Under the pieces are notes generated by a model that ran no database searches, was not told the origin of the DNA, and saw only the letters and a list, made by a program, of their open reading frames with translations. The position numbers and the translations under genes are program-made. Positions 1-52,758 of a stretch of 64,000 nt of DNA are shown piece by piece. This DNA is from an uncultured virus (IMG/VR IMGVR_UViG_3300028840_003967) (lineage: Duplodnaviria; Heunggongvirae; Uroviricota; Caudoviricetes), in IMG/VR virus record IMGVR_UViG_3300028840_003967, positions 1 to 64,000 of that record; one strand, written 5' to 3'. Position 1 is the first letter of the stretch. Each line of letters starts with the position of its first letter.

Positions 1-659
1 CGTTGGTTTGAAAACACCTTGTCTTTTTCGGAAAAGATTCCACTCTCCAATATCACCTTTATCGCATCTGGATGGCCGTCAGCGGGTTGGATGAAAACTT
101 CTCTCACAAAGACTTCTTCTTTCAGGATTTCCTCGACTTCCCTCATGTCCTGTTCCGTGCCGACAACGAACTTGAAATAGCAATTCGTCATATAACGGAC
201 CAATGTAGGAAGCGCACTGCGCCTACCGGAGCTAGAGAGTTTCGGAGAAATGATCCATGCGTCAATGCAAACGAAATGTTTCGGATCGCACTTGTCCAGA
301 AGTTCCCCGTTCGTTTCGATTGAAGTCCCGAACGCCGGTTCGATCTCTTTGCAGATTTGAACAATCTGTGGAAGGAAGATAGTAGGCTCACCGCCAGTGA
401 AAACAACATGGCGCTTGTGAAGAGGAAAAGACTTCAAAACAGAAATAACATACTCGACAGATAACGAAAGGTGTTTTGTTTCCGCCTGACTCGGTTTGAT
501 ATTTTCCGGTTTGTAGCCGCTATCGCACCAACTACATGTTCGATTGCATCCAAGAGTCCTCAGAAAAACAGAAGGAAGGCCAACTGTTGGACCTTCCCCG
601 GAAATCGTCTCATAAATTTCATGTACACCAATTTCTTTAGGAGTTCCTTGCCTCCGCAT
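1..659 (-). CDS. queE: 7-carboxy-7-deazaguanine synthase (radical SAM), runs off left edge; missing from ORF track
   Basis: Manual translation from ATG 659: MRRQGTPKEIGVHEIYETISGEGPTVGLPSVFLRTLGCNRTCSWCDSGY...VVFTGGEP...SIETNG...ISPK; CxxxCxxC and GGEP motifs. Confidence 0.92.
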   Translation of the reverse strand, partial: MRRQGTPKEIGVHEIYETISGEGPTVGLPSVFLRTLGCNRTCSWCDSGYKPENIKPSQAETKHLSLSVEYVISVLKSFPLHKRHVVFTGGEPTIFLPQIVQICKEIEPAFGTSIETNGELLDKCDPKHFVCIDAWIISPKLSSSGRRSALPTLVRYMTNCYFKFVVGTEQDMREVEEILKEEVFVREVFIQPADGHPDAIKVILESGIFSEKDKVFSNQ

Positions 660-1053
660 AAGATGTATTCGTTTCCCAAACGCGAAGGGAGTCCAGTCTT
701 GCGGATTCATGCTCGAAACACTCCTTCATCTCCGCGAACCAATGAAGCGCCAACACTTCAACCGTAGGGTCTTGATGGATTATGAACACGTGTTCCCTGA
801 AGCCGCCCTCAATGAGAACGCCCGCGAGAGGATCGTCTATTTTGAGAACGACTTTATGATCCCATCTCTCCACGACGTGTTTCAACTTTTTGAGTTCCGC
901 GAAGTCCACCACAAATCCGTTGTCGCCTATGTTGCCGTAGGCCGTCAACTCCACGCGGTAGTTGTGCCCGTGCAAGAAACGACACTTCCCTTCGTGCCGC
1001 ATCAACCTATGGGCGATAGAGAACTCGCCCAAAAATTTCGTTACCTTGACCAT
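637..1053 (-). CDS. queD: 6-carboxy-5,6,7,8-tetrahydropterin synthase
   Basis: AHRL..HEGKCRFLHGHNY, VVDF, WDHK, PTVE, VWET motifs. Confidence 0.95.
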   Translation of the reverse strand: MVKVTKFLGEFSIAHRLMRHEGKCRFLHGHNYRVELTAYGNIGDNGFVVDFAELKKLKHVVERWDHKVVLKIDDPLAGVLIEGGFREHVFIIHQDPTVEVLALHWFAEMKECFEHESARLDSLRVWETNTSYAEARNS

Positions 1054-1057
1054 TAGT

Positions 1058-1255
1058 TTACCTCATTCCTAGGCTACCTCTTCCTTTGTCCTTGCACGCA
1101 TTCCGACCGAGTTTTTGTTCGATCCACACTTGCGCCATGGGCCGATCTTCTTTCTTCAACGTCTTGAAATCCTCAAAGCACTCATTACACACGGCATGTC
1201 CCGCGATTGTCCTATGAGGATTCCCTTCGTTTTCCCGGCAGGCGCAACATCTCAT
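1058..1255 (-). CDS. small Zn-finger-like hypothetical protein
   Basis: CxxC...HxVCxxC; fits operon spacing. Confidence 0.5.
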   Translation of the reverse strand: MRCCACRENEGNPHRTIAGHAVCNECFEDFKTLKKEDRPMAQVWIEQKLGRNACKDKGRGSLGMR

Positions 1256-1258
1256 ACC

Positions 1259-1564
1259 CTACTCTCCTTTGTCTTCTTCGGATTTTTCACCTTCATCTTC
1301 CTTGGGCGCTTCTTCAGGGGATACGACAGTCTTCGGAGGAGCGTCAAAGACGTACTCGACAGTCTTGTTCTTTACGGCTTCGGTGAAATTCCGAAACATG
1401 TTCACGCAATCGACACGGTTCTCGTAGCCTTGCCCGCCTTGCGAGCCGGTGCCGAAGAGATAATTCCCGTTGGCACTGTACACGCTTACCTCGTGTTTGG
1501 CTTTCTTTCCCTTTCCCTGCCTGCTGAACACGACTTGATGAGTCATCTTTCCTGAAATCGCCAT
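1259..1564 (-). CDS. hypothetical protein, DUF1508/YegP-like; may have an in-frame N-terminal TM extension from ~1681
   Basis: AAGGAG RBS before ATG 1564; SANGNYLFGTG..GYENRVDC resembles YegP/DUF1508. Confidence 0.45.
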   Translation of the reverse strand: MAISGKMTHQVVFSRQGKGKKAKHEVSVYSANGNYLFGTGSQGGQGYENRVDCVNMFRNFTEAVKNKTVEYVFDAPPKTVVSPEEAPKEDEGEKSEEDKGE

Positions 1565-1726
1565 TGATTCGCTCCTTTCTTTCTCTTCAATCTTACTTCT
1601 CCAAAAAGCAAAAAACGACAATGCTCCCACAAGAGCTATGATCGTGAGCGCATACATTAGGTCTACCATGTGATCTCTCATGGTTTTACTCGCTCGTGAT
1701 TCGAAGTTCTCCAAAACAGCGCGTCG

Positions 1727-2016
1727 TGGCTCCCCCGCCTGGATTCGAACCAGGAATCGCGGATTACGCAGAAAGACGGAGCCTCCCAACAGTAACGGCA
1801 CGATGACAAACAGCACAGAGCAACACGCACTTCTCAGCTTCTTTCCGCAGTCGTTCATATGATTCATTACACCCAGCAATTACAAATAGCTTTCGTATGC
1901 CTTTTCGATGATGAAAGTCAAAGCCTTCTCGCCCATCTCGCGTCGGCGTTTTGTCTTCGTCCCTTTCTGCATTTTCAATCTCCTTCGCCGTCGTGATACC
2001 ATTTCACCACAGGGAA
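1727..2016 (-). tRNA. interrupted tRNA gene (Asn- or Gln-like; anticodon not intact)
   Basis: 5' half 2016-~1987 TTCCCTG-TG-GTGA AATGGTA TCAC (acceptor + D-arm); 3' half 1766-1727 TAATCCGC GATT CCTGG TTCGAAT CCAGG CGGGGGA G CCA; acceptor strands pair 7/7 (two G:U). Confidence 0.8.
1764..1972 (-). pseudogene. frameshifted HNH endonuclease remnant inside the tRNA anticodon arm
   Basis: AAGGAG-N7-ATG MQKGTKTKRRREMGEKAL, then a 1-nt shift to DFHHRKGIRKLFVI...ERLRKEAEKCVLLCAVCHR; stop TAA lies in the anticodon-loop position. Confidence 0.7.
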
Positions 2017-2583
2017 TCATTTTATGTGCTCCAGGATTTCATCCTTGACTTGCAAACCCGCTTGCCCGAGCACGACGCAGACTTTGGTCGCCGCATGGAT
2101 GTCACCAGTTCCCGTGCATACACACGCATGGTGGGCCTTGGAGAGAACGCAAACGGCTTCAGGTTTGAGCCTTTCTTCAAGCTCTGCGGCGATTCTATGC
2201 GTGAACTCTTCTTGAAGAGTTCCGACCTTCGAGAAGAATTCAACCAACTGTGGAAGTTTCGAGAATCCGACGATGTGTTTTCCTGGTAAATAACCGATTC
2301 CGACTGTCCCATAGAACGGCACGAAGTGATGTTGGCAGATCGATACGAAACAGATGTCTCGCATGACAACGATGTCGTTCCCTCTTGATTTGAACAACTT
2401 GAAGTCGAAAGGTAATCGGTGAGGATAGCGATCATTGATCTTGTCCTTGTTCGCTGTCATCTGTTCAAGCATCTTGACGACACGCCGGGGAGTCTCCAGC
2501 GTTTCGTTCTTCAGCTTTATGCCTAGATGGTGGCACATCCGGGCATAGGCTTTTTCAGCCGATTTACGCTTTCTGGCGTTCAC
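2017..2583 (-). CDS. folE: GTP cyclohydrolase I
   Basis: ETPRRV, SICQHHFVPFYG, GFSKL, LQE, HAC Zn ligands. Confidence 0.93.
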   Translation of the reverse strand: MNARKRKSAEKAYARMCHHLGIKLKNETLETPRRVVKMLEQMTANKDKINDRYPHRLPFDFKLFKSRGNDIVVMRDICFVSICQHHFVPFYGTVGIGYLPGKHIVGFSKLPQLVEFFSKVGTLQEEFTHRIAAELEERLKPEAVCVLSKAHHACVCTGTGDIHAATKVCVVLGQAGLQVKDEILEHIK

Positions 2584-3265
2584 AGAACTCCTCCCAACCC
2601 TTCTTTCGGAGTAAGCAAGCTGGACATTTTCCGCATCCGTGTCCCCAACTGTGTTTGCCTAACCCTGTGTTATAGCAAGTCGCTGTTTCAGTCAAGATGG
2701 TTTCCAGAACGCCCAACTCATCCGCTGCTTCAAAGATGCGCGCCTTCGTCATGTTTATTAACGGCGTGAACAGGCGCACAGTGTTCTTAGGCAATCCCAA
2801 GGCGAAGTTGATAGCGTCTTCACACGCAGCAACAAACTCATAACGGCAATCAGGATAGCCGCTGGAATCCGCTTGGCACACGCCGCTGTAGATGTGCTCT
2901 ATCCCCCGGCTGACGGCCACTCCGGCAGCGATAGAGAAGAACACCATGTTCCGGCCAGGAACAAACGACGTGGGCAATCCCTTGAACCTCTTGCTTTCCT
3001 CGATCTTCTCAAAACTGTACCCTGTCAGAGCGGAATCGAGGAGTGCTCCGTAGTTCTTCAAATCAACGGTGTCGTGCTTGCGGACTTCGAAGATTTTCCC
3101 TATCCGCTTTGCTTGGAGCAGTTCCATCTCATGCCGCTGGCCGTAACAAAAAGACAGAGCATCCACGAACGGATACTTGAAGTTCCGTTTCATCAGCGCA
3201 AGACAGGTTGCCGAATCCTGTCCGCCGGAAAGAAGAATCAGTGCGCCTTTTTGTCCTGATTCCAT
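2564..3265 (-). CDS. queC: 7-cyano-7-deazaguanine synthase (canonical)
   Basis: SGGQDS PP-loop, YGQRH, VPGRN, GYPDC, TCY..CGKCPAC Zn site. Confidence 0.95.
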   Translation of the reverse strand: MESGQKGALILLSGGQDSATCLALMKRNFKYPFVDALSFCYGQRHEMELLQAKRIGKIFEVRKHDTVDLKNYGALLDSALTGYSFEKIEESKRFKGLPTSFVPGRNMVFFSIAAGVAVSRGIEHIYSGVCQADSSGYPDCRYEFVAACEDAINFALGLPKNTVRLFTPLINMTKARIFEAADELGVLETILTETATCYNTGLGKHSWGHGCGKCPACLLRKKGWEEFCERQKA

Positions 3266-3936
3266 TTCTTGTACACCTTCTGTGCAGAGGTTATCGCGGA
3301 AGCCCGAACCAAACATGCGAGGCACACTTCGCAACCTTTTGGATCGTAGTTGCAGGAATTCGTTTTTTCAAGATCGATGCCGAGACTAAGCGCGAGCAAA
3401 GCAACTTGATGCTTCTGGAATCCGCATTCAAGAAACGGCGCTCGTATCTCGGTGATTTCGTCTTTCGTGAAGCCGCCGACTTCCTGAAGTTCCCGATACG
3501 TGTCAAGGAAAGCGGAAGTGCGATCCGAATGCGGTTCCTCCTCTTCGTGATGGAAACCCACGAACAGGTCCATCTCTTCTATGCTGGCCAAACAAGCGCC
3601 CTGTGTGATGAGGAAAGTGTTCCTTCCGTTGATGTAGTCCTTGGCAATGGAACTGCGTCCAGGTTCTATCTTCTCGCCAAAGCGGAAAATCGGCCCGCCT
3701 TTGACTTCATCTTTCATCGGTATGTCAGCCCTGTGCCTCACCAAGAATCCTCTCCCGAGAACTCCTTGATGATACTCGACGTACTCTATGGACTTTTCTG
3801 TTGTCACTTGCCCGAAGTCAACGACCAAGTTGATGATCCGTTCTTCAGGGTTCACTCCGTACACAAAGGGGTTCTTTGCGATGGCATAGAACAGCGCGGT
3901 AGAATCTAGTCCTCCAGAAGCCAGGATCACGGGCAT
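3238..3936 (-). CDS. second, divergent QueC-family PP-loop ATPase
   Basis: SGGLDS, DFGQ, NGRN, SCNY..CEVCLAC retained; YPDC replaced by HSDR. Confidence 0.85.
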   Translation of the reverse strand: MPVILASGGLDSTALFYAIAKNPFVYGVNPEERIINLVVDFGQVTTEKSIEYVEYHQGVLGRGFLVRHRADIPMKDEVKGGPIFRFGEKIEPGRSSIAKDYINGRNTFLITQGACLASIEEMDLFVGFHHEEEEPHSDRTSAFLDTYRELQEVGGFTKDEITEIRAPFLECGFQKHQVALLALSLGIDLEKTNSCNYDPKGCEVCLACLVRASAITSAQKVYKKWNQDKKAH

Positions 3937-4325
3937 TTTCTTTCTCCTTCCGCTGTGCAACGTATCCTCACACCGCCGCGAGAGTTGAACGTGGTACTCA
4001 CACTCACAGTCAAAGGATCGATGGCTTTCAAGAAGTCATCTCGAATCCTTGCTGTGATGCTTTCCTGAAACGCCTTGAAGTTCCTGTAGCTCCCCAAGTA
4101 CAGCTTCAGCGACTTCGATTCACAGATGCTTTCGAAAGGCGTGTACTGTATGTCGATTGCCCCGAAGTCCGGTTGTCCCGTCACCGGACAGAGAGACGTG
4201 AACTCTTCGAAAGAAATGCAGATACTCGGCGTTGGATGCTTCACTTGGAAAGGAACGCCTACGAGCAAGGATGGCGAATATTCTTCTGGAAACGGAACCA
4301 CTTTGCCGAGCGGGATGTCTTCCAT
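3927..4325 (-). CDS. queF: preQ0 reductase, unimodular type
   Basis: EFTSLCPVTGQPDF and QueF motif ESKSLKLYL, C-terminal RGG. Confidence 0.93.
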   Translation of the reverse strand: MEDIPLGKVVPFPEEYSPSLLVGVPFQVKHPTPSICISFEEFTSLCPVTGQPDFGAIDIQYTPFESICESKSLKLYLGSYRNFKAFQESITARIRDDFLKAIDPLTVSVSTTFNSRGGVRIRCTAEGERKCP

Positions 4326-4350
4326 GGCCGTACCGTCCACTGCGGAGAGT

Positions 4351-4404
4351 AAAAGAAAAAGGCGAGTATTTCTAGCGTCCGCAAACGCTAACGGTTGACT
4401 CGCC
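4351..4404 (-). terminator. long hairpin with U-tract upstream of que operon
   Basis: GGCGAGT..TAGCGT TTGCGG ACGCTA..ACTCGCC followed by TTTTTCTTTT. Confidence 0.7.
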
Positions 4405-4423
4405 TTCCCCCTACAACGAATGC

Positions 4424-4579
4424 TTACGGTCGCGGGGGACGCCTTCGCTTGCCAGCCTGCACGCCCAGGCGCTGTCTGCCACGGCCTGCCGCTGCACCCC
4501 CACGGCGACGGCCTGCACGAACGCCTCGACGCCCTTTGCGGCCTGCCGCTGCTGTTCCCCCCTTTCCTCCCCCTGGCAT
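4424..4579 (-). CDS. protamine-like Arg/Gly-rich 51-aa peptide
   Basis: GGAGG RBS, own promoter and terminator; MPGGGKGG...RKGRRGVRAGRRRGG..., no acidic residues. Confidence 0.7.
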   Translation of the reverse strand: MPGGGKGGTAAAGRKGRRGVRAGRRRGGAAAGRGRQRLGVQAGKRRRPPRP

Positions 4580-4630
4580 GATCGCCTCCTCTCTTCCTTG
4601 TACCGGCCTGAGTGCCAGTACGACGATCAC

Positions 4631-4659
4631 AGCCTAGTAGAATCCCGGCTTCCCGTCAA
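4631..4659 (-). promoter_or_regulatory. sigma70-like promoter
   Basis: TTGACG-N17-TAGGCT. Confidence 0.6.
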
Positions 4660-5120
4660 GCGGACGGCTTATCCGAACTTGCTTCTTGAGGGGTTATTTT
4701 ATGCACAGGACGCCAGTTTGCAACCCTGAAATTCTTGTGATTCTCAGGAACCACACTCACAAGGCGCAAAACTGAGCAATCTTTGATGATTTTTTCCTTC
4801 GTTTCCCGGTTCTCGACTACGACGCTCGTCCAGTAGGGGATACAGGCGACACGCAGCCTGGAACGCTTGGTGACGAAATCCCTGTTGATGGCCCTGCATG
4901 TGATGATCGCGCACTTGTACGCTTGGTGGCCCGCGTTCGCCCCGAGAAAGACGAACTCGATAGGGCGCACTCCCCGTGCCCACAGGTTGTAGGCGTCCAT
5001 CCCTATCTTGAAAACTTGGGTCGCTCCGCTGATCCTCACAGACCCCCGGTGGTAGCTGTACTCAGCCTTCTTCACCGAGCCGGTCTTCTCTTCTTTGATG
5101 TTCCCGTTTGCTTCCGGCAT
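4656..5120 (-). CDS. SpoVS-like (Alba-fold) protein
   Basis: VRIS...IEFVFLGANAGHQAYKCAII...CIP resembles SpoVS EIQAIGAGALNQAVKAVAI...CIP. Confidence 0.6.
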   Translation of the reverse strand: MPEANGNIKEEKTGSVKKAEYSYHRGSVRISGATQVFKIGMDAYNLWARGVRPIEFVFLGANAGHQAYKCAIITCRAINRDFVTKRSRLRVACIPYWTSVVVENRETKEKIIKDCSVLRLVSVVPENHKNFRVANWRPVHKITPQEASSDKPSA

Positions 5121-5476
5121 TGTTCCATCCTCGCTTTCGGCAGTAGGGCAGCAATGGTTTTGATGTCTCCCGGATCGATCAACACAAGGAACTGAGGGCA
5201 TCCCTTCTGTCTGTGTTGTCGCCGTTGGGCCAAGGCCACGATGAGAGGCTTACCCTCTTCCTGTGCCTTGGGAAGCTGCTCCTTCCACAGCTCCACAGCC
5301 GCGTGCTTGTCGCGGTACTTCGTTTCGATGTAGAAGTGAGGGCTACGGGAGTCTGATTGGGTGTCGTGGCCCGAGTTGCTACCAGACAGAGGAACGCGCT
5401 TGGTTCCGAAGAACGCCGCTACATCGGCTTCGACCTTCTTCCAGTGCTTCGATCTCTGCTTCGCTGTGCGGGCCAT
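5072..5476 (-). CDS. Holliday junction resolvase-like PD-(D/E)XK nuclease
   Basis: KVEADVA...RVPLSG...SD...YIETK...GKPLIV. Confidence 0.7.
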   Translation of the reverse strand: MARTAKQRSKHWKKVEADVAAFFGTKRVPLSGSNSGHDTQSDSRSPHFYIETKYRDKHAAVELWKEQLPKAQEEGKPLIVALAQRRQHRQKGCPQFLVLIDPGDIKTIAALLPKARMEQCRKQTGTSKKRRPAR

Positions 5477-5497
5477 GACTCTCTCCTGATCTGCCGA

Positions 5498-5525
5498 AGT
5501 CTACGAGGTTTTCACCGCCTGTCAA
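5498..5525 (-). promoter_or_regulatory. sigma70-like promoter
   Basis: TTGACA-N16-TAGACT in intergenic gap. Confidence 0.55.
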
Positions 5526-5573
5526 CCATTTCCTCTTCGACTTCTCGTTGATGACTCGGCTTTCTCCGGCAAC

Positions 5574-6065
5574 TCAAGCTCGACTAGAGCGTTCATACTC
5601 GACACTCCTTCTGCTTTGATCGCGGCTCAACGCCTTGGATTTCCGGTCGTAGTTGTCCACTCGCGTTTCAAGGGCGATTTTCATCGCCTCAAGTTCCTCG
5701 CACCTACGGACCAACTTTTGAATCTTCGGATCAAGGTCCATCTCCGCATCCTGTTCGTACTTCTTTTTCCCTCCGCTTGCGAATCGAATCCTCGCCCTTG
5801 CCGTGCGCAAACTTCTTTGCGCACCGATCAACTGGATTCTCGTTTTGGCGAGATGATCGTTGGCATAGGCATACCACGCCACCATAGCCGTGTAAGCTCG
5901 TTGCAGCCTCTTGGGCGGCAGGCGTGTAGGGTCAATCGGCATTTGCGCCGTGCTGTCCTTCGGCTTGTCCGTATCGACGATACCTACAGCGCGAATGCGG
6001 CGCTCCGTTTCTTCGAGGATGGTCCTTTTCTTTTTGCTTTTCGTCCCTTTGCGTTTTTTAACCAT
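5574..6065 (-). CDS. helical coiled-coil protein, possibly UvsY-like recombination mediator
   Basis: Coiled-coil pattern, position in recombination module. Confidence 0.4.
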   Translation of the reverse strand: MVKKRKGTKSKKKRTILEETERRIRAVGIVDTDKPKDSTAQMPIDPTRLPPKRLQRAYTAMVAWYAYANDHLAKTRIQLIGAQRSLRTARARIRFASGGKKKYEQDAEMDLDPKIQKLVRRCEELEAMKIALETRVDNYDRKSKALSRDQSRRSVEYERSSRA

Positions 6066-8074: not shown

Positions 8075-8651
8075 TTACGCCCTCCTTTTTCTCTGCTTCG
8101 TAAGCCAGCCCCAAGATCGACCAAGTTTGATGTCTGTAATCGTAACTTGATGAACACCAAACTTCCTAGAGATTTCAGTTGGGCCTTCACCTTGCGCTAA
8201 CAATCGACAGATACGGCGCACATCTCTTTCCTTCAACTTAGCCCCGTTTTGCTTCGATCCTTGAACATGCGTTCCGTGCCGCTTTTTGTCAGCTATGTTT
8301 TCTTTCTTAGTCCCCCAAACCAAATTGCCGATCCTGTTATTGGCCGGGTTCCCGTCCAGATGACGGCATTCCATGCCTTCAGGACACGGGCCGACGAAAG
8401 CAAGAAGCACAAGACGGCAAACCTTGAAGTTGAACGACTTGTTGCTAAGGCTAAACGTAATGATCGGTCTTCCGTTTTCCGAGATGTTGTGCGGGCGTAT
8501 CCTGGCCGTCTGGCCGATGAAGTGTCTAAAGCCACGACACGCCCCCTCTTGTTTTTCGCGCCCAAAAAGAACGCACACGTCCCTGGTCGGAGACTTCATA
8601 TCCTTCCCATCCGGGAATGGGCTTCCAGATTTCTCTCTTCCGCCCGCCCAT
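8075..8651 (-). pseudogene. NUMOD4-HNH homing endonuclease, frameshifted near 8540-8570
   Basis: ATG 8651 gives EIWKPIPGWEGYEVSDQGRVRS then TAG; other frame gives RLVLLAFVGPCPEGMECRHLDGNPANNRIGNL plus HTH. Confidence 0.8.
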
Positions 8652-49391: not shown

Positions 49392-49595
49392 CTTAGCCCT
49401 CTTGCGTCCAGCGGCAGCCATCTTGGCCATCTTCTTTGCGCCGAACTTTTTCCGGCCTATGACAGCGGCCAAAGCCTTTGGGTCTTCAATCCCGTCTTCC
49501 TGTCTTCCCAAGGATCGTTGAAGCCGTTGAAAACGTTTCCCGGTTCCCAACTTGGGCAGCTTCTTTTTCTGTCCACGTCCGCCACGCTGTGCCAT
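49389..49595 (-). CDS. small basic protein between terminase and portal
   Basis: LGTGKRF..DPKALAAVIGRKKFG. Confidence 0.65.
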   Translation of the reverse strand: MAQRGGRGQKKKLPKLGTGKRFQRLQRSLGRQEDGIEDPKALAAVIGRKKFGAKKMAKMAAAGRKRAK

Positions 49596-52363
49596 TACGC
49601 TATTACCCCCGCTCCTACCATGAAGTTCTGTTGAACTTCGATTTCGCCCGTGTCTGCCGGTTCCTGCGCGCCGTAGGCGGCAAGCATGAGAGAAACAGGG
49701 TAGTCGTCATGCGCTCCCGGTTCGTCTGGATGCTCGCACACCATGTAGTTGTTCTTGTACAACTTTCTCAAGTCCAACATCTCTCCCACGAAGCGCCTGA
49801 AGTGTCTTGACTTTCTCGCCTTCTCTCCGGCAGGGAAGGAGAGTCTACCCGACATGAGATCGGAATGCAATATCTTAAAACCATCCGACTTCGAAGCCGG
49901 GGTGAACTTCACTCCCTGCACTTCGACAAATCCCATTTCAGGCGTTCCATCCGCCCCCTTCCCGCGATCAAACTCGCTGTAGTACACGGTGAACTTGTCA
50001 AGTCCCCATTCCCCCACACCTGTTGCATCGAGAGTGATCTTCCTCAGTCCTTTGAAATTGGAGAGGAAGTTCACAATCTCGTGGAATTGGTGCTCGTAGT
50101 TGTCGCCGAGAAGCATGTGCCAAGCAACGACACGCTTGTTGTAGGCGATCCAATGGAAACTCCCTTCAGGCGTGTCAACCCATTCATCAGCGACGGGAGT
50201 TCTCCAATCCACGTCCATTACGGTAATCACACTTGGATCGTGGATTTTTCCGAAGTCAATCCCGGCGATCTGAGTTGTCACACGAGAAGATCGGTGCCAA
50301 ATCTCGTGATAGCCGCCGTGCGTCTTAGCGATTGCGGGCGTCATAAGCTGCTTGTCCGTGATGAACTGTCCACGCTCAAGCAACCATTCGCAGCAATAGC
50401 TAAGACGGAACTCATCGCTGTCTTCACCAAGGCGAACTTTTTCTTTCTTGATGTAGTCCCGATACATGGAGTTGTACTTTTGACAAACAAGATAGTCGTA
50501 TCGGTAGTGGTTCTTCGCTTCGCCTTGCGCGTACAAACGCTGATTGGACTTGATCGACGTGTAGAAATCAGACTTCTCCGTCGAACAAGTTCCGATCTTC
50601 ACAATGACGCCGTTGTACGCGGCAACCATGGGATGAAGGCTGTTACCTGTTACGATTCCATTAGCAATGACAAAATGCCGTTCATCTGGAACAGTCACGC
50701 AGTATGTGGGTTTCTTTCCGATATGTCTGACGGATTTAACACTAACAAACTGTATGTCTTCAGGATAAAACTGACTTCTACTCCGCCCTCTTTTTCCTTG
50801 AATAGTGCGGATACCCGCTTCAAGAGCGTCTTGTTTTGGCCCTAAGTTAAACTGCTTATGAAATTCACGCACATCTTCAACAGACTTTATATGCAGTCGG
50901 TACATATAGGTGCCTAGACGTTCTTTTATTCCCGGCAAATTCCCTGTGCTTTCCACGAAACCTTCGAACTTAGCACATTGAATGCCGAAGTGTAACAAAG
51001 TTTTCCGAAGGCCGTCTACAAGATACTCTGAACAGTTGGAAAATGAAACAACAGGTTTCACAGTCGGATTTTCTATACTGCCGTCAGCTATAATCAACCC
51101 GGAAGCAAGTCCGCGCAGAAATTCTAAGCTCCAAGGAAGATTGGGTATACGCTTGTTCTCACGCTTTGCCCCCCAAACGCCGATTTTTTTCAGCCATTCT
51201 GTCAACTTATTAGAGCCTTTCTTGTTTCCAGGCGAAGTAAGCCCACATTCAAGCATTCCACTAGATTGCTCGTTATAGACTACAGGACGCACGCCGAATT
51301 CATGCGGACATATACGGTCAAGTAGTTTCTTTACAGAAGGCTCAACAATTATTTGCGGCTTATCGCCAGTGAAACATCCGTCACCAAGAAGCAAGCCAAG
51401 CAAGAATCCTCGATCAAAGTTCCCTAAGACACCTGCTGCATTATTCAATCGTGTAGGAACAGCCATTTGCCAGCCGGGCTGGATTTCGTAAGTCAAGGCT
51501 TCGAAAGGAACCCTCCGAGTTCTGCTGCGCACAAAATGCCGGTGATTGGCCGTAACGTCTAAGTATCTTCCTCCTGCTAATGTCACACGATACACGGGTT
51601 GCACACCATTATCATGGTACTCAATATCACGAGACTCAAAAAAGCCAGAAGGAGTCAACACAGGCAGTTTCTTTTTGACAACTTCTTCCACAGGAACTTC
51701 GATTCCTCCAGAAGTAATGAAAAGCGTGCCTTCAGCAAAACACTTCCTCACCTTCAGCGTCCCGATGTCTTGCGCCTCATCAAGAATCAGGATGTGGTAC
51801 GTGTCGCCTTCGATGTGTGACTGTTCCGAAGCCGACTGAGAACGAATCCGGCTTCCATTCGAAAGACGAGTCTTGTTGGCGTTGCCGATGTCAAGGGCAA
51901 CGTTCAATTCGGCGGCTACTTCCTTCGTGGTGTCCGTTTCGAGCGTGTCACGAAGGCGACTGTAAACGATGTCAGCCTGTTCCTGTTTCGGCGCGTAGAT
52001 GCCGACAACGACACCGTACTTGTAGCCGCGATAGTTGCCTTGCTCGTCGGTACAGTTCAAGCGCCAATCGTCTTCGAAGATTTTCATTCTCGCAAGAAGC
52101 GGAAGAATCAAGCAGCACGCGGCGAGAATGTCCGCAATCAACTGAGACTTGCCGGACTGCCTAGCCCAAAGCGCGGTAAGCATGTCGCCGTCATGGAGAA
52201 GAACGGCTTCCACAAAACGATAGCCGAACTCCTTCTGATACTTGAAGTGCCTCTTCTGAGAAAGGATTTCGGCAAGACGGAGAATACGCAAAACAAGACT
52301 ATCCAACGGCACAGTCGGTTGACTGGTTTCCCGCGTGCAGACACGCGGTGCCATGGGTTCCAT
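49595..52363 (-). CDS. terminase large subunit containing an intein
   Basis: ARQSGKS, ILDEAQ, GIDFG, DATGVG, HDDY. Confidence 0.95.
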   Translation of the reverse strand: MEPMAPRVCTRETSQPTVPLDSLVLRILRLAEILSQKRHFKYQKEFGYRFVEAVLLHDGDMLTALWARQSGKSQLIADILAACCLILPLLARMKIFEDDWRLNCTDEQGNYRGYKYGVVVGIYAPKQEQADIVYSRLRDTLETDTTKEVAAELNVALDIGNANKTRLSNGSRIRSQSASEQSHIEGDTYHILILDEAQDIGTLKVRKCFAEGTLFITSGGIEVPVEEVVKKKLPVLTPSGFFESRDIEYHDNGVQPVYRVTLAGGRYLDVTANHRHFVRSRTRRVPFEALTYEIQPGWQMAVPTRLNNAAGVLGNFDRGFLLGLLLGDGCFTGDKPQIIVEPSVKKLLDRICPHEFGVRPVVYNEQSSGMLECGLTSPGNKKGSNKLTEWLKKIGVWGAKRENKRIPNLPWSLEFLRGLASGLIIADGSIENPTVKPVVSFSNCSEYLVDGLRKTLLHFGIQCAKFEGFVESTGNLPGIKERLGTYMYRLHIKSVEDVREFHKQFNLGPKQDALEAGIRTIQGKRGRSRSQFYPEDIQFVSVKSVRHIGKKPTYCVTVPDERHFVIANGIVTGNSLHPMVAAYNGVIVKIGTCSTEKSDFYTSIKSNQRLYAQGEAKNHYRYDYLVCQKYNSMYRDYIKKEKVRLGEDSDEFRLSYCCEWLLERGQFITDKQLMTPAIAKTHGGYHEIWHRSSRVTTQIAGIDFGKIHDPSVITVMDVDWRTPVADEWVDTPEGSFHWIAYNKRVVAWHMLLGDNYEHQFHEIVNFLSNFKGLRKITLDATGVGEWGLDKFTVYYSEFDRGKGADGTPEMGFVEVQGVKFTPASKSDGFKILHSDLMSGRLSFPAGEKARKSRHFRRFVGEMLDLRKLYKNNYMVCEHPDEPGAHDDYPVSLMLAAYGAQEPADTGEIEVQQNFMVGAGVIA
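50642..51742 (-). mobile_element. intein with LAGLIDADG homing endonuclease (367 aa)
   Basis: K|CFAEGT N-terminus, TANHRH block B, LLGLLLGDG and SGLIIADG, IANGIVTGN|S C-terminus; lower GC. Confidence 0.93.
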
Positions 52364-52371
52364 AAGACTGT

Positions 52372-52758
52372 TCACGGATTCCGCGTCTCCAGTTCCTTCT
52401 GAATGACTTTCACGTCTATCTGCATCTGTTGCTGGCGCGTGTCCATCTTTGTGTTCCACGCCTTCTGTTCTTCCATGTGCCGCTCGATTCTCTTGTACGC
52501 TTTCTCGGTGATCTCCTTGTTGTGCTCGTTATCTTTCTGCAAGTCCTTGATGTTGCCGTGGTTTTCCCAACTCCGCTTGTTGACCGGCAAAAGGCGCTCT
52601 TCGTTTCTCTGAATGCCTTCTTTGTTCTCTTTCACATCCCGCTGCATCTGAAGAAACGTGTAGTAGAATCCGATGATCGCGGCGCATAGCGCGAGCACGA
52701 ACTTAATCAATTCAAATCCATGCTTCGACGCATGTTTCTTCAGCGTTGAAGTGTTCAT
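52372..52758 (-). CDS. single-TM + coiled-coil protein (holin/XhlA-like?)
   Basis: LIKFVLALCAAIIGFYYTFL then heptads. Confidence 0.5.
   Translation of the reverse strand: MNTSTLKKHASKHGFELIKFVLALCAAIIGFYYTFLQMQRDVKENKEGIQRNEERLLPVNKRSWENHGNIKDLQKDNEHNKEITEKAYKRIERHMEEQKAWNTKMDTRQQQMQIDVKVIQKELETRNP

Follow-up and report, generated by a model that had tools for sequence, protein, structure and literature searches.

A Split tRNA-Asn-like Gene in an Uncultured Phage, Probably Invaded by a Free-Standing HNH Endonuclease Gene That Has Since Decayed

Two intact halves of a tRNA gene that stand apart, with an HNH endonuclease reading frame between them, may mark an intron that is removed from a working tRNA, a tRNA-like RNA kept for another role, or a tRNA gene destroyed by invasion. 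The question is raised by a locus in an uncultured virus, of which we analyzed a window of 64 kb, the first part of a 75.8-kb virus record; coordinates of the locus refer to the minus strand. A first-pass annotation of this DNA had left three readings side by side: a mobile tRNA intron or intervening sequence, an anticodon-less tRNA mimic or decoy, and a tRNA killed by endonuclease invasion. The analyses described here favor the last of these, and overall we consider it likely that a free-standing homing endonuclease of tRNA regions has here come to lie inside a tRNA gene and has decayed.

Two tRNA Halves within a 7-Deazaguanine Precursor Operon

The tRNA 5′ half (1987-2016, minus strand), delimited by sequence, by ARAGORN with introns allowed, and by a pair check, begins at 2016 directly after the TGA stop codon (2019-2017) of folE, the upstream neighbor encoding GTP cyclohydrolase I (2017-2583, minus strand; PF01227, E 3.5e-39). 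It comprises, in order, a 7-nt acceptor strand, T8 and G9, a D stem of 4 bp enclosing the loop AATGGTA, a G, and ACGGC, the 5′ strand of the anticodon stem. The 3′ half (1727-1763, minus strand), delimited by blastn and by comparison with phage tRNAs, comprises TCCGC, the 3′ strand of the anticodon stem, followed by GATT, a T stem of 5 bp enclosing the loop TTCGAAT, the acceptor strand CGGGGGA, the discriminator G, and an encoded CCA. The two halves are separated by 223 nt (1986-1764), which confirms the earlier description of intact halves about 220 nt apart, starting right after the folE stop. In the pair check the acceptor strands of the two halves pair at 7/7 positions (two of them G-U), and the anticodon stem strands ACGGC and TCCGC pair at 3/5, in agreement with the imperfect pairing of the 5′ strand noted at first pass. 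Features of a functional tRNA are thus present in register (a 7-bp acceptor stem, a D arm with GG, U8, a T loop of the TTCGAAT type, and CCA); a functional anticodon arm, with a 5-bp stem, a 7-nt loop, U33, and an anticodon, is not found at the locus.

By blastn the 3′ half matches the annotated tRNA-Asn(GUU) of 10 Streptomyces phage records (94-100% over 27-35 nt), and one of its matches to an annotated phage tRNA-Asn extends over 34 nt at 97%. When it was compared with 192 distinct phage tRNAs, the top 4 matches, and 8 of the 12 best, were tRNA-Asn. The 5′ half, compared with the same 192 tRNAs, shows no isotype preference and is not specifically Asn-like. Judged by the sequence of its 3′ half, the phage's single tRNA gene is Asn-like.

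The split tRNA lies inside a que operon (1-4340 of the window), between FolE and a 140-aa ORF (1259-1681). The link to queuosine suggested at first pass, on the grounds that GUN tRNAs such as Asn are its substrates, suits this setting as a possible connection. The other members of this 7-deazaguanine precursor operon, all on the minus strand as is the 140-aa ORF, are QueE (3-710), QueD (637-1053), a 65-aa zinc-finger ORF listed between QueD and the 140-aa ORF, QueC (2564-3334), a second QueC-like gene (3238-3960), and QueF (3927-4340). Neither a promoter nor a terminator belonging to the split tRNA was found near it, and no member of the TGT/DpdA family (PF01702) was found in the phage record or in the near-identical record G001. 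Nearly all phage genes are on the minus strand, and they include bacterial-type phage genes for PolA, DnaB, primase, a RecA/UvsX-like recombinase, portal, and terminase. Two further HNH ORFs, both unrelated to the tRNA-borne HNH, are present on the minus strand, namely an HNH_3 ORF (8075-8599; E 5.2e-14) and an HNH-type ORF (G000 66988-67413; weak match to phrog_8446, E 1.3e-9), as is a 954-aa terminase large subunit with a LAGLIDADG intein (49595-52459; PF14528, E 7.1e-10; PF14890, E 6.1e-8). No paralogue of the tRNA-borne HNH was detected in the phage genome by tblastn.

The phage is present in seven DNA runs from five studies, covering sediment and seawater, with no RNA run among those listed, and all seven assemblies carrying this DNA are near-identical. 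When 5-6 kb are compared, two further assemblies and the contigs from four runs show a single-base difference at most (T>C at 2115, in folE), and no indels or joints occur in the contigs of the four DNA runs compared over positions 1-6000. The first-pass annotation had proposed a search for uninterrupted alleles or alleles with an intact HNH; neither these nor a diverged phage relative occur among the copies and contigs searched, which yielded near-identical copies only. FolE scans of viral and metagenome contigs returned two such copies (L002 and L006) and otherwise strangers of 30% identity, and a 24-nt pattern taken from the 5′ half had no match in viral contigs. The contigs of 75.4-75.6 kb from three runs start at window position 2 or 119, and G001 is permuted by ~19.7 kb; the genome may therefore be ~75.5 kb long with fixed or permuted ends.

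The Insert and Its HNH Reading Frame

At its 5′ end (1973-1986, minus strand) the insert carries, by sequence, a GAAGGAG ribosome-binding site (1986-1980) and a 7-nt spacer, followed by an ATG at 1972-1970. A 30-codon ORF starts at this ATG (1880-1972, minus strand; N-terminal profile search), of which residues 1 to 17-18 represent an HNH N-terminal remnant and the remainder is out-of-frame read-through. The HNH catalytic core (FDFHH … N … CAVCH), the tail GRLRLSA, and a TAA stop follow (1764-1922, minus strand; phrog_3106, phmmer, and ORF list). The core (1922-1767) is in a frame other than that of ATG 1972 and, according to the ORF list, has no start codon ahead of its catalytic residues; the TAA (1766-1764) abuts TCCGC of the tRNA 3′ half.

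The presence of a catalytic H…N…H core in the insert is supported by phrog_3106, by phmmer, and by alignment. The core matches phrog_3106 with an E value of 1.3e-12, over profile positions 176-226 of 252 only, and a phmmer search of 1.84 billion representatives gave 1171 matches at E<=1e-3 (best 4.7e-13), all over query residues ~23-79. Pfam gave no match for the HNH frame, and a word-indexed protein search with the 79-aa frame gave no candidate among proteins of 43-139 aa. Among the 150 best of the 1171 phmmer matches, three (P0062, P0081, and P0001) contain the N-terminal motif of the ATG 1972 ORF, with nine consecutive residues at the P0062 N terminus being identical to it. A 32-column profile of these three N termini, searched against the six-frame genome, ranked the ATG 1972 piece first (E 0.0011; next 0.15); the 30-aa N-terminal ORF did not align with P0081 in BLASTP.

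In P0062, P0081, and P0001 the DFHH motif lies 56-60 residues past the M of the MGE motif, whereas here the F of FDFHH lies 14 nt past the M of MGE, in a different frame; on the basis of these distances, about 50-55 codons have been lost, a zinc knuckle among them. The GGxCxxC knuckle is carried by all intact relatives compared, including an 87-aa gene of Roseobacter phage CRP-227, and is absent here. Alignments and the motif distances in relatives place the deletion junction at 1920-1925 (minus strand), where …MGEKA meets GFDFHH…. The HNH gene has therefore been internally deleted, through a 3n+1 loss of roughly 160 nt, and the nuclease is very probably inactive. The first-pass description of an insert with a ribosome-binding site and an ATG for an HNH ORF is borne out by the GAAGGAG, by ATG 1972, and by the phrog_3106 match; its further proposal, that a single missing base breaks the ORF, was right as to the frame offset and wrong as to the size of the loss. 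The CRP-227 gene (OR420746.1, L106:1408-1671, plus strand) is an intact and unannotated member of the family of the tRNA-borne HNH, positioned between the DNA polymerase and thymidylate synthase genes of that phage.

The tail GRLRLSA fits a motif located past the final CxxCH in 11 of the 150 best phmmer matches out of 1171 (e.g. P0123). Since it matches a tail motif of the family, the cassette extends to the TAA that abuts the tRNA 3′ half, and the homology agrees with the first-pass view that the insert reaches a TAA next to an Asn-like 3′ strand. The sequence CCGTC (1779-1775) falls within the codons of this tail. The exact 5′ boundary of the insert is uncertain because the anticodon stem pairs at only 3/5 positions.

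tRNA Detection, Splicing Motifs, and RNA Folding

As the first-pass annotation had anticipated, standard tRNA finders miss the locus. Default ARAGORN reports no tRNA there, and Rfam reports neither a tRNA nor a group I intron at E<=10 over positions 1-6000; either half searched alone likewise gives no match to the Rfam tRNA model at E<=10 (RF00005, gathering threshold 29 bits). The intron-permitting ARAGORN run that had been recommended does call the locus, at 1727-2016, and this is the single call in the whole 75.8-kb genome; the same setting applied to 40 dinucleotide shuffles (3.03 Mb in total) gave 1 call. The tRNA frame is robust, since, with the middle virtually excised at 960 combinations of cut points, default ARAGORN called a tRNA in 382 cases. 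None of these cuts yields a tRNA-Asn(GUU) of standard length with a 7-nt loop, U33, and GUU. No tmRNA was found with ARAGORN -m. The solution that ARAGORN itself proposes is a tRNA-Leu(AAG) in which GACGG (1992-1988) pairs with CCGTC (1779-1775), with a 20-nt variable arm and G33. We rejected this reading on account of G33 and of the 3′ stem strand, CCGTC, which lies inside HNH coding sequence homologous to family tails; with split tRNAs, ARAGORN at times pairs the 5′ strand of the anticodon stem with an incorrect 3′ strand (Williams preprint, 10.1101/2020.01.27.920355).

The motifs that would support splicing were sought at and around the junctions. The group I catalytic core (RF00028) has no match at E<=10 in positions 1-6000, so that Rfam agrees with the first-pass annotation, in which no such core had been recognized; as a positive control, the same Rfam library detects a ~240-nt group I intron (78.4 bits) in the tRNA-Arg of locus L065. 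That intron (L065:877-1121, plus strand) lies in a phage tRNA array, ~380 nt upstream of a related HNH gene. Under the group I junction rule (U at −1, G at omega), the base before the insert is C1987 and the base before the TAA is G1767, of which only the second fits. A bulge-helix-bulge search had also been proposed, and it found nothing at the junctions: with the motif defined as two 3-nt bulges around a 4-bp helix at the exon-intron junctions, the scan gave 3 pattern matches, compared with a mean of 1.5 in shuffles, none of them at a junction. The 290-nt RNA folds at −86.9 kcal/mol (z = 0.01 versus shuffles), indicating no unusual stability, and a fold with the acceptor, D, and T arms forced lies 5.9 kcal/mol above the minimum-free-energy fold. 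No RtcB or RNA-ligase family was found in the 75.8-kb record. With no group I core, no bulge-helix-bulge at the junctions, a fold z of 0.01, and no cut that restores Asn(GUU), the first-pass reading of a mobile tRNA intron or intervening sequence finds nothing here to sustain it.

The complementarity between the insert termini that was reported at first pass is real. The 5′ arm of this terminal helix (1963-1972, minus strand) covers the start codon, and the 3′ arm (1766-1775, minus strand) lies in the last HNH codons; both arms were assigned from sequence and helix statistics. The helix has 11 bp, including 2 G-U, and is equaled in 157/5000 shuffles and in 8/780 equal-length segments of the genome; it is only mildly unusual (rarer than chance at the ~1-3% level) and was picked after the fact. 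Translational brakes are known for homing-endonuclease genes, and the helix could be such a brake or could be due to chance.

The HNH Family, Competing Readings, and Known Systems

A survey of 175 viral-contig loci around HNH relatives, in sets of 45, 50 (query P0075), and 80 (query a three-protein alignment) in which some contigs recur, revealed frequent proximity to tRNA genes. The HNH ORF could be placed in 91 of the first 95 loci, and 78 of these are distinct. At least one tRNA lies within 1.5-2 kb of the HNH in 35/78 distinct loci, often in dense arrays on contigs of 300-550 kb, and in 14/78 a same-strand tRNA begins between −15 and +60 nt relative to the HNH stop. The tRNA right after the HNH stop is tRNA-Asn(GUU) in 7 of these 14, and the share of tRNA-Asn among all distinct tRNAs there is 26/201. 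tRNAs also occur in 24 of the last 80 loci, one of which (L109, a 461-kb contig) has the same N-terminal HNH motif and places its HNH 75 nt upstream of a tRNA-Asn. Among cultured phages, an HNH-like ORF lies within the tRNA array of Klebsiella phage NDO71, and an unannotated HNH-like stretch follows a tRNA-Asn in Gordonia phage ClubL. The target of the HNH family is plausibly the tRNA-Asn gene itself. An HNH inside a tRNA was found in 0/175 loci (ARAGORN, introns up to 1200 nt), and we found no publication that describes an intron-less HNH cassette within a tRNA gene. In L010, L012, and L072 the order is tRNA-Asn, HNH, tRNA-Asn, with the two tRNA copies differing in the acceptor stem; because the acceptor strands at the present locus pair at 7/7 positions, whereas those flanking pairs differ, the two halves here appear to derive from one gene.

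The tRNA-Asn genes of the HNH loci have further peculiarities. A tRNA-Asn(GUU) whose anticodon loop holds a structured insert occurs in two unrelated viral contigs: L010:2267-2412 (plus strand; 71 nt after U33; 51.9 bits with the Rfam tRNA model), which begins at the stop of a related HNH gene, and L055:2015-2174 (minus strand; 84 nt after G34; 53.2 bits with the same model). Both inserts are far too short for group I introns. Among the 24 distinct tRNA-Asn genes of HNH loci, 7 reach 86-95 nt because their variable region forms a hairpin that class I tRNAs do not usually have (L010:1833-1927, L014:2537-2628, L033:3094-3182 on the minus strand, L058:1140-1226 on the minus strand, L060:1748-1833, L072:1746-1832, and L089:2587-2675); such a hairpin may alter a nuclease target. 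A "tRNA-Phe" with a 204-nt intron in L112 was rejected, having no Rfam support.

The reading that we regard as probable is that a homing-endonuclease cassette lacking an intron entered the anticodon loop of a dispensable tRNA-Asn gene, and that both genes are now pseudogenes. A free-standing HNH cassette, consisting of ribosome-binding site, ORF, and stop, would have been inserted as a copy into the only tRNA gene of the phage, within its anticodon loop. The natural place of the family would be beside tRNA-Asn genes, and cleavage of the tRNA-Asn gene would have driven the insertion; free-standing homing endonucleases spread with their flanks. Because the cassette came without a self-splicing RNA around it, the anticodon loop would have been lost and the tRNA would be dead. 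The phage would have tolerated this loss, and the target site would have been destroyed; the nuclease gene would later have decayed through the out-of-frame internal deletion of ~50-55 codons, including the zinc knuckle. We infer both the insertion event, with no uninterrupted allele or diverged relative among the searched copies, and its details, i.e. that tRNA-Asn gene cleavage drove it and that repair at the RNA level is absent. The bare HNH cassette, the tRNA-Asn-adjacent family, and the internal deletion uphold the endonuclease invasion proposed at first pass, and the presence of other homing elements in the genome (the HNH_3 ORF and the terminase intein with LAGLIDADG) also speaks for it. 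Against it, an HNH inside a tRNA is atypical for the family, given the count of 0/175; both tRNA halves look undecayed, and the 5′ half is not specifically Asn-like; the 11-bp terminal helix is rarer than chance; the Rfam tRNA model scores neither the locus nor the halves; and ARAGORN prefers another 3′ strand, CCGTC at 1779-1775.

Several of these points could instead indicate that the intervening sequence is removed from the RNA by an unfamiliar route, involving host or phage nucleases and a ligase, so that the tRNA still works. The intact halves with their full acceptor stem and encoded CCA, the pairing between the insert ends, and the recurrence of anticodon-loop inserts in the tRNA-Asn(GUU) of L010 (71 nt) and L055 (84 nt) would be consistent with such removal, but the junctions lack both a group I core and a bulge-helix-bulge, the fold is no more stable than shuffles (z = 0.01), RtcB and RNA-ligase families were not found in the 75.8-kb record, none of the cuts restores a standard-length tRNA whose 7-nt loop has U33 and GUU, and the HNH within is decayed, as expected of a dead element; we therefore consider RNA-level removal improbable. 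A related proposal, to which we give only a slender chance, is that the insert is the ORF-bearing form of a hitherto undescribed class of intervening sequences in phage tRNA-Asn anticodon loops, with the L010 and L055 inserts as ORF-less siblings; these would be removed or tolerated without a group I core, and the tRNA frame would serve to process and shield a nuclease mRNA. The locus might also encode an anticodon-less tRNA-like RNA, kept as an anticodon-nuclease decoy, as a processing or stability signal of the operon, or as a substrate mimic for a queuosine enzyme. Its embedding in the que operon, where neither a promoter nor a terminator of its own lies close by, the preserved acceptor, D, and T arms, and the cost of only 5.9 kcal/mol for the constrained cloverleaf would suit an RNA of this kind. 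However, all copies are near-identical, so that preservation of the arms gives no test of conservation; a decoy for an anticodon nuclease would require an anticodon loop; neither the phage record nor G001 encodes a TGT/DpdA family member; and an HNH remnant within the gene is most simply explained by invasion. Such an RNA is in our view quite unlikely, and nothing was found in support of the mimic or decoy suggested at first pass.

The occurrence of the order tRNA-Asn, HNH, tRNA-Asn in L010, L012, and L072 allows the locus to be viewed as the leftover of an array of this type, with the 3′ half of its first tRNA lost to one deletion and the 5′ half of its second tRNA to another. Although the locus has already undergone one deletion, within the HNH gene, this history needs two more, each ending exactly at the anticodon region, and the acceptor strands here pair at 7/7 positions, unlike those of the flanking copies in the three arrays, making it a doubtful alternative with little probability. 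That the locus merely resembles a tRNA by chance is hardly credible: the Rfam tRNA model is blank for the locus and for the halves, and default ARAGORN is silent, but the intron-mode call rate is 1 per 3.03 Mb of shuffles as against 1 in the 75.8-kb real genome, the 3′ half has a 34-nt, 97% match to an annotated phage tRNA-Asn, and the T loop, the D loop with GG, U8, the 7-bp acceptor, and CCA are all in register.

If invasion followed by decay is the correct reading, the locus captures a stage of the homing cycle in an RNA gene, in which a homing endonuclease settles in the tRNA gene itself, lacks any self-splicing RNA that would mask the damage, and subsequently decays. It also draws attention to a family of phage HNH genes associated with tRNA-Asn genes and is a caution for annotation, in that neat tRNA halves flanking an ORF need not mean an intron. 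If the phage did once have its own tRNA-Asn in the queuosine-precursor operon, this would hint that the operon worked for tRNA, either alongside DNA modification or in its place.

Inserts that divide tRNA genes are known from other systems. In archaeal bulge-helix-bulge tRNA introns and split tRNAs, the intervening sequence lies in or near the anticodon loop and its flanks pair. The present locus is similar in the position of the insert and in the flank pairing, but it has no bulge-helix-bulge motif at the junctions, and the replication genes of the phage are bacterial-type (PolA, DnaB, and RecA/UvsX-like). Like group I tRNA introns, the insert interrupts the anticodon loop of a tRNA and contains an endonuclease ORF; unlike them, it has no catalytic core, has C rather than U before the 5′ junction, and is filled by its ORF from ribosome-binding site to stop. 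In "fractured genes", a free-standing homing endonuclease gene divides a host gene, and the halves are rejoined as protein by split inteins (PMC2677866). The present locus resembles fractured genes in that a gene is halved by a bare endonuclease gene, and differs from them in that no rejoining device is seen here. HNH is reported to be the most widespread coding sequence of tRNA arrays, and SegB to be a homing endonuclease that belongs to the tRNA cluster of T4 (PMC5966550, PMC6409571, PMC13096335). The SegB and array HNH genes lie between tRNA genes, whereas the present cassette lies inside a tRNA, is internally deleted, and belongs to a phage with no tRNA array. It shares with SegB of T4 and T6 and with the HNH genes of mycobacteriophage and mycobacterial tRNA arrays the character of an intron-less nuclease gene associated with tRNA genes, and its relatives in the loci analyzed here also occur in tRNA arrays.
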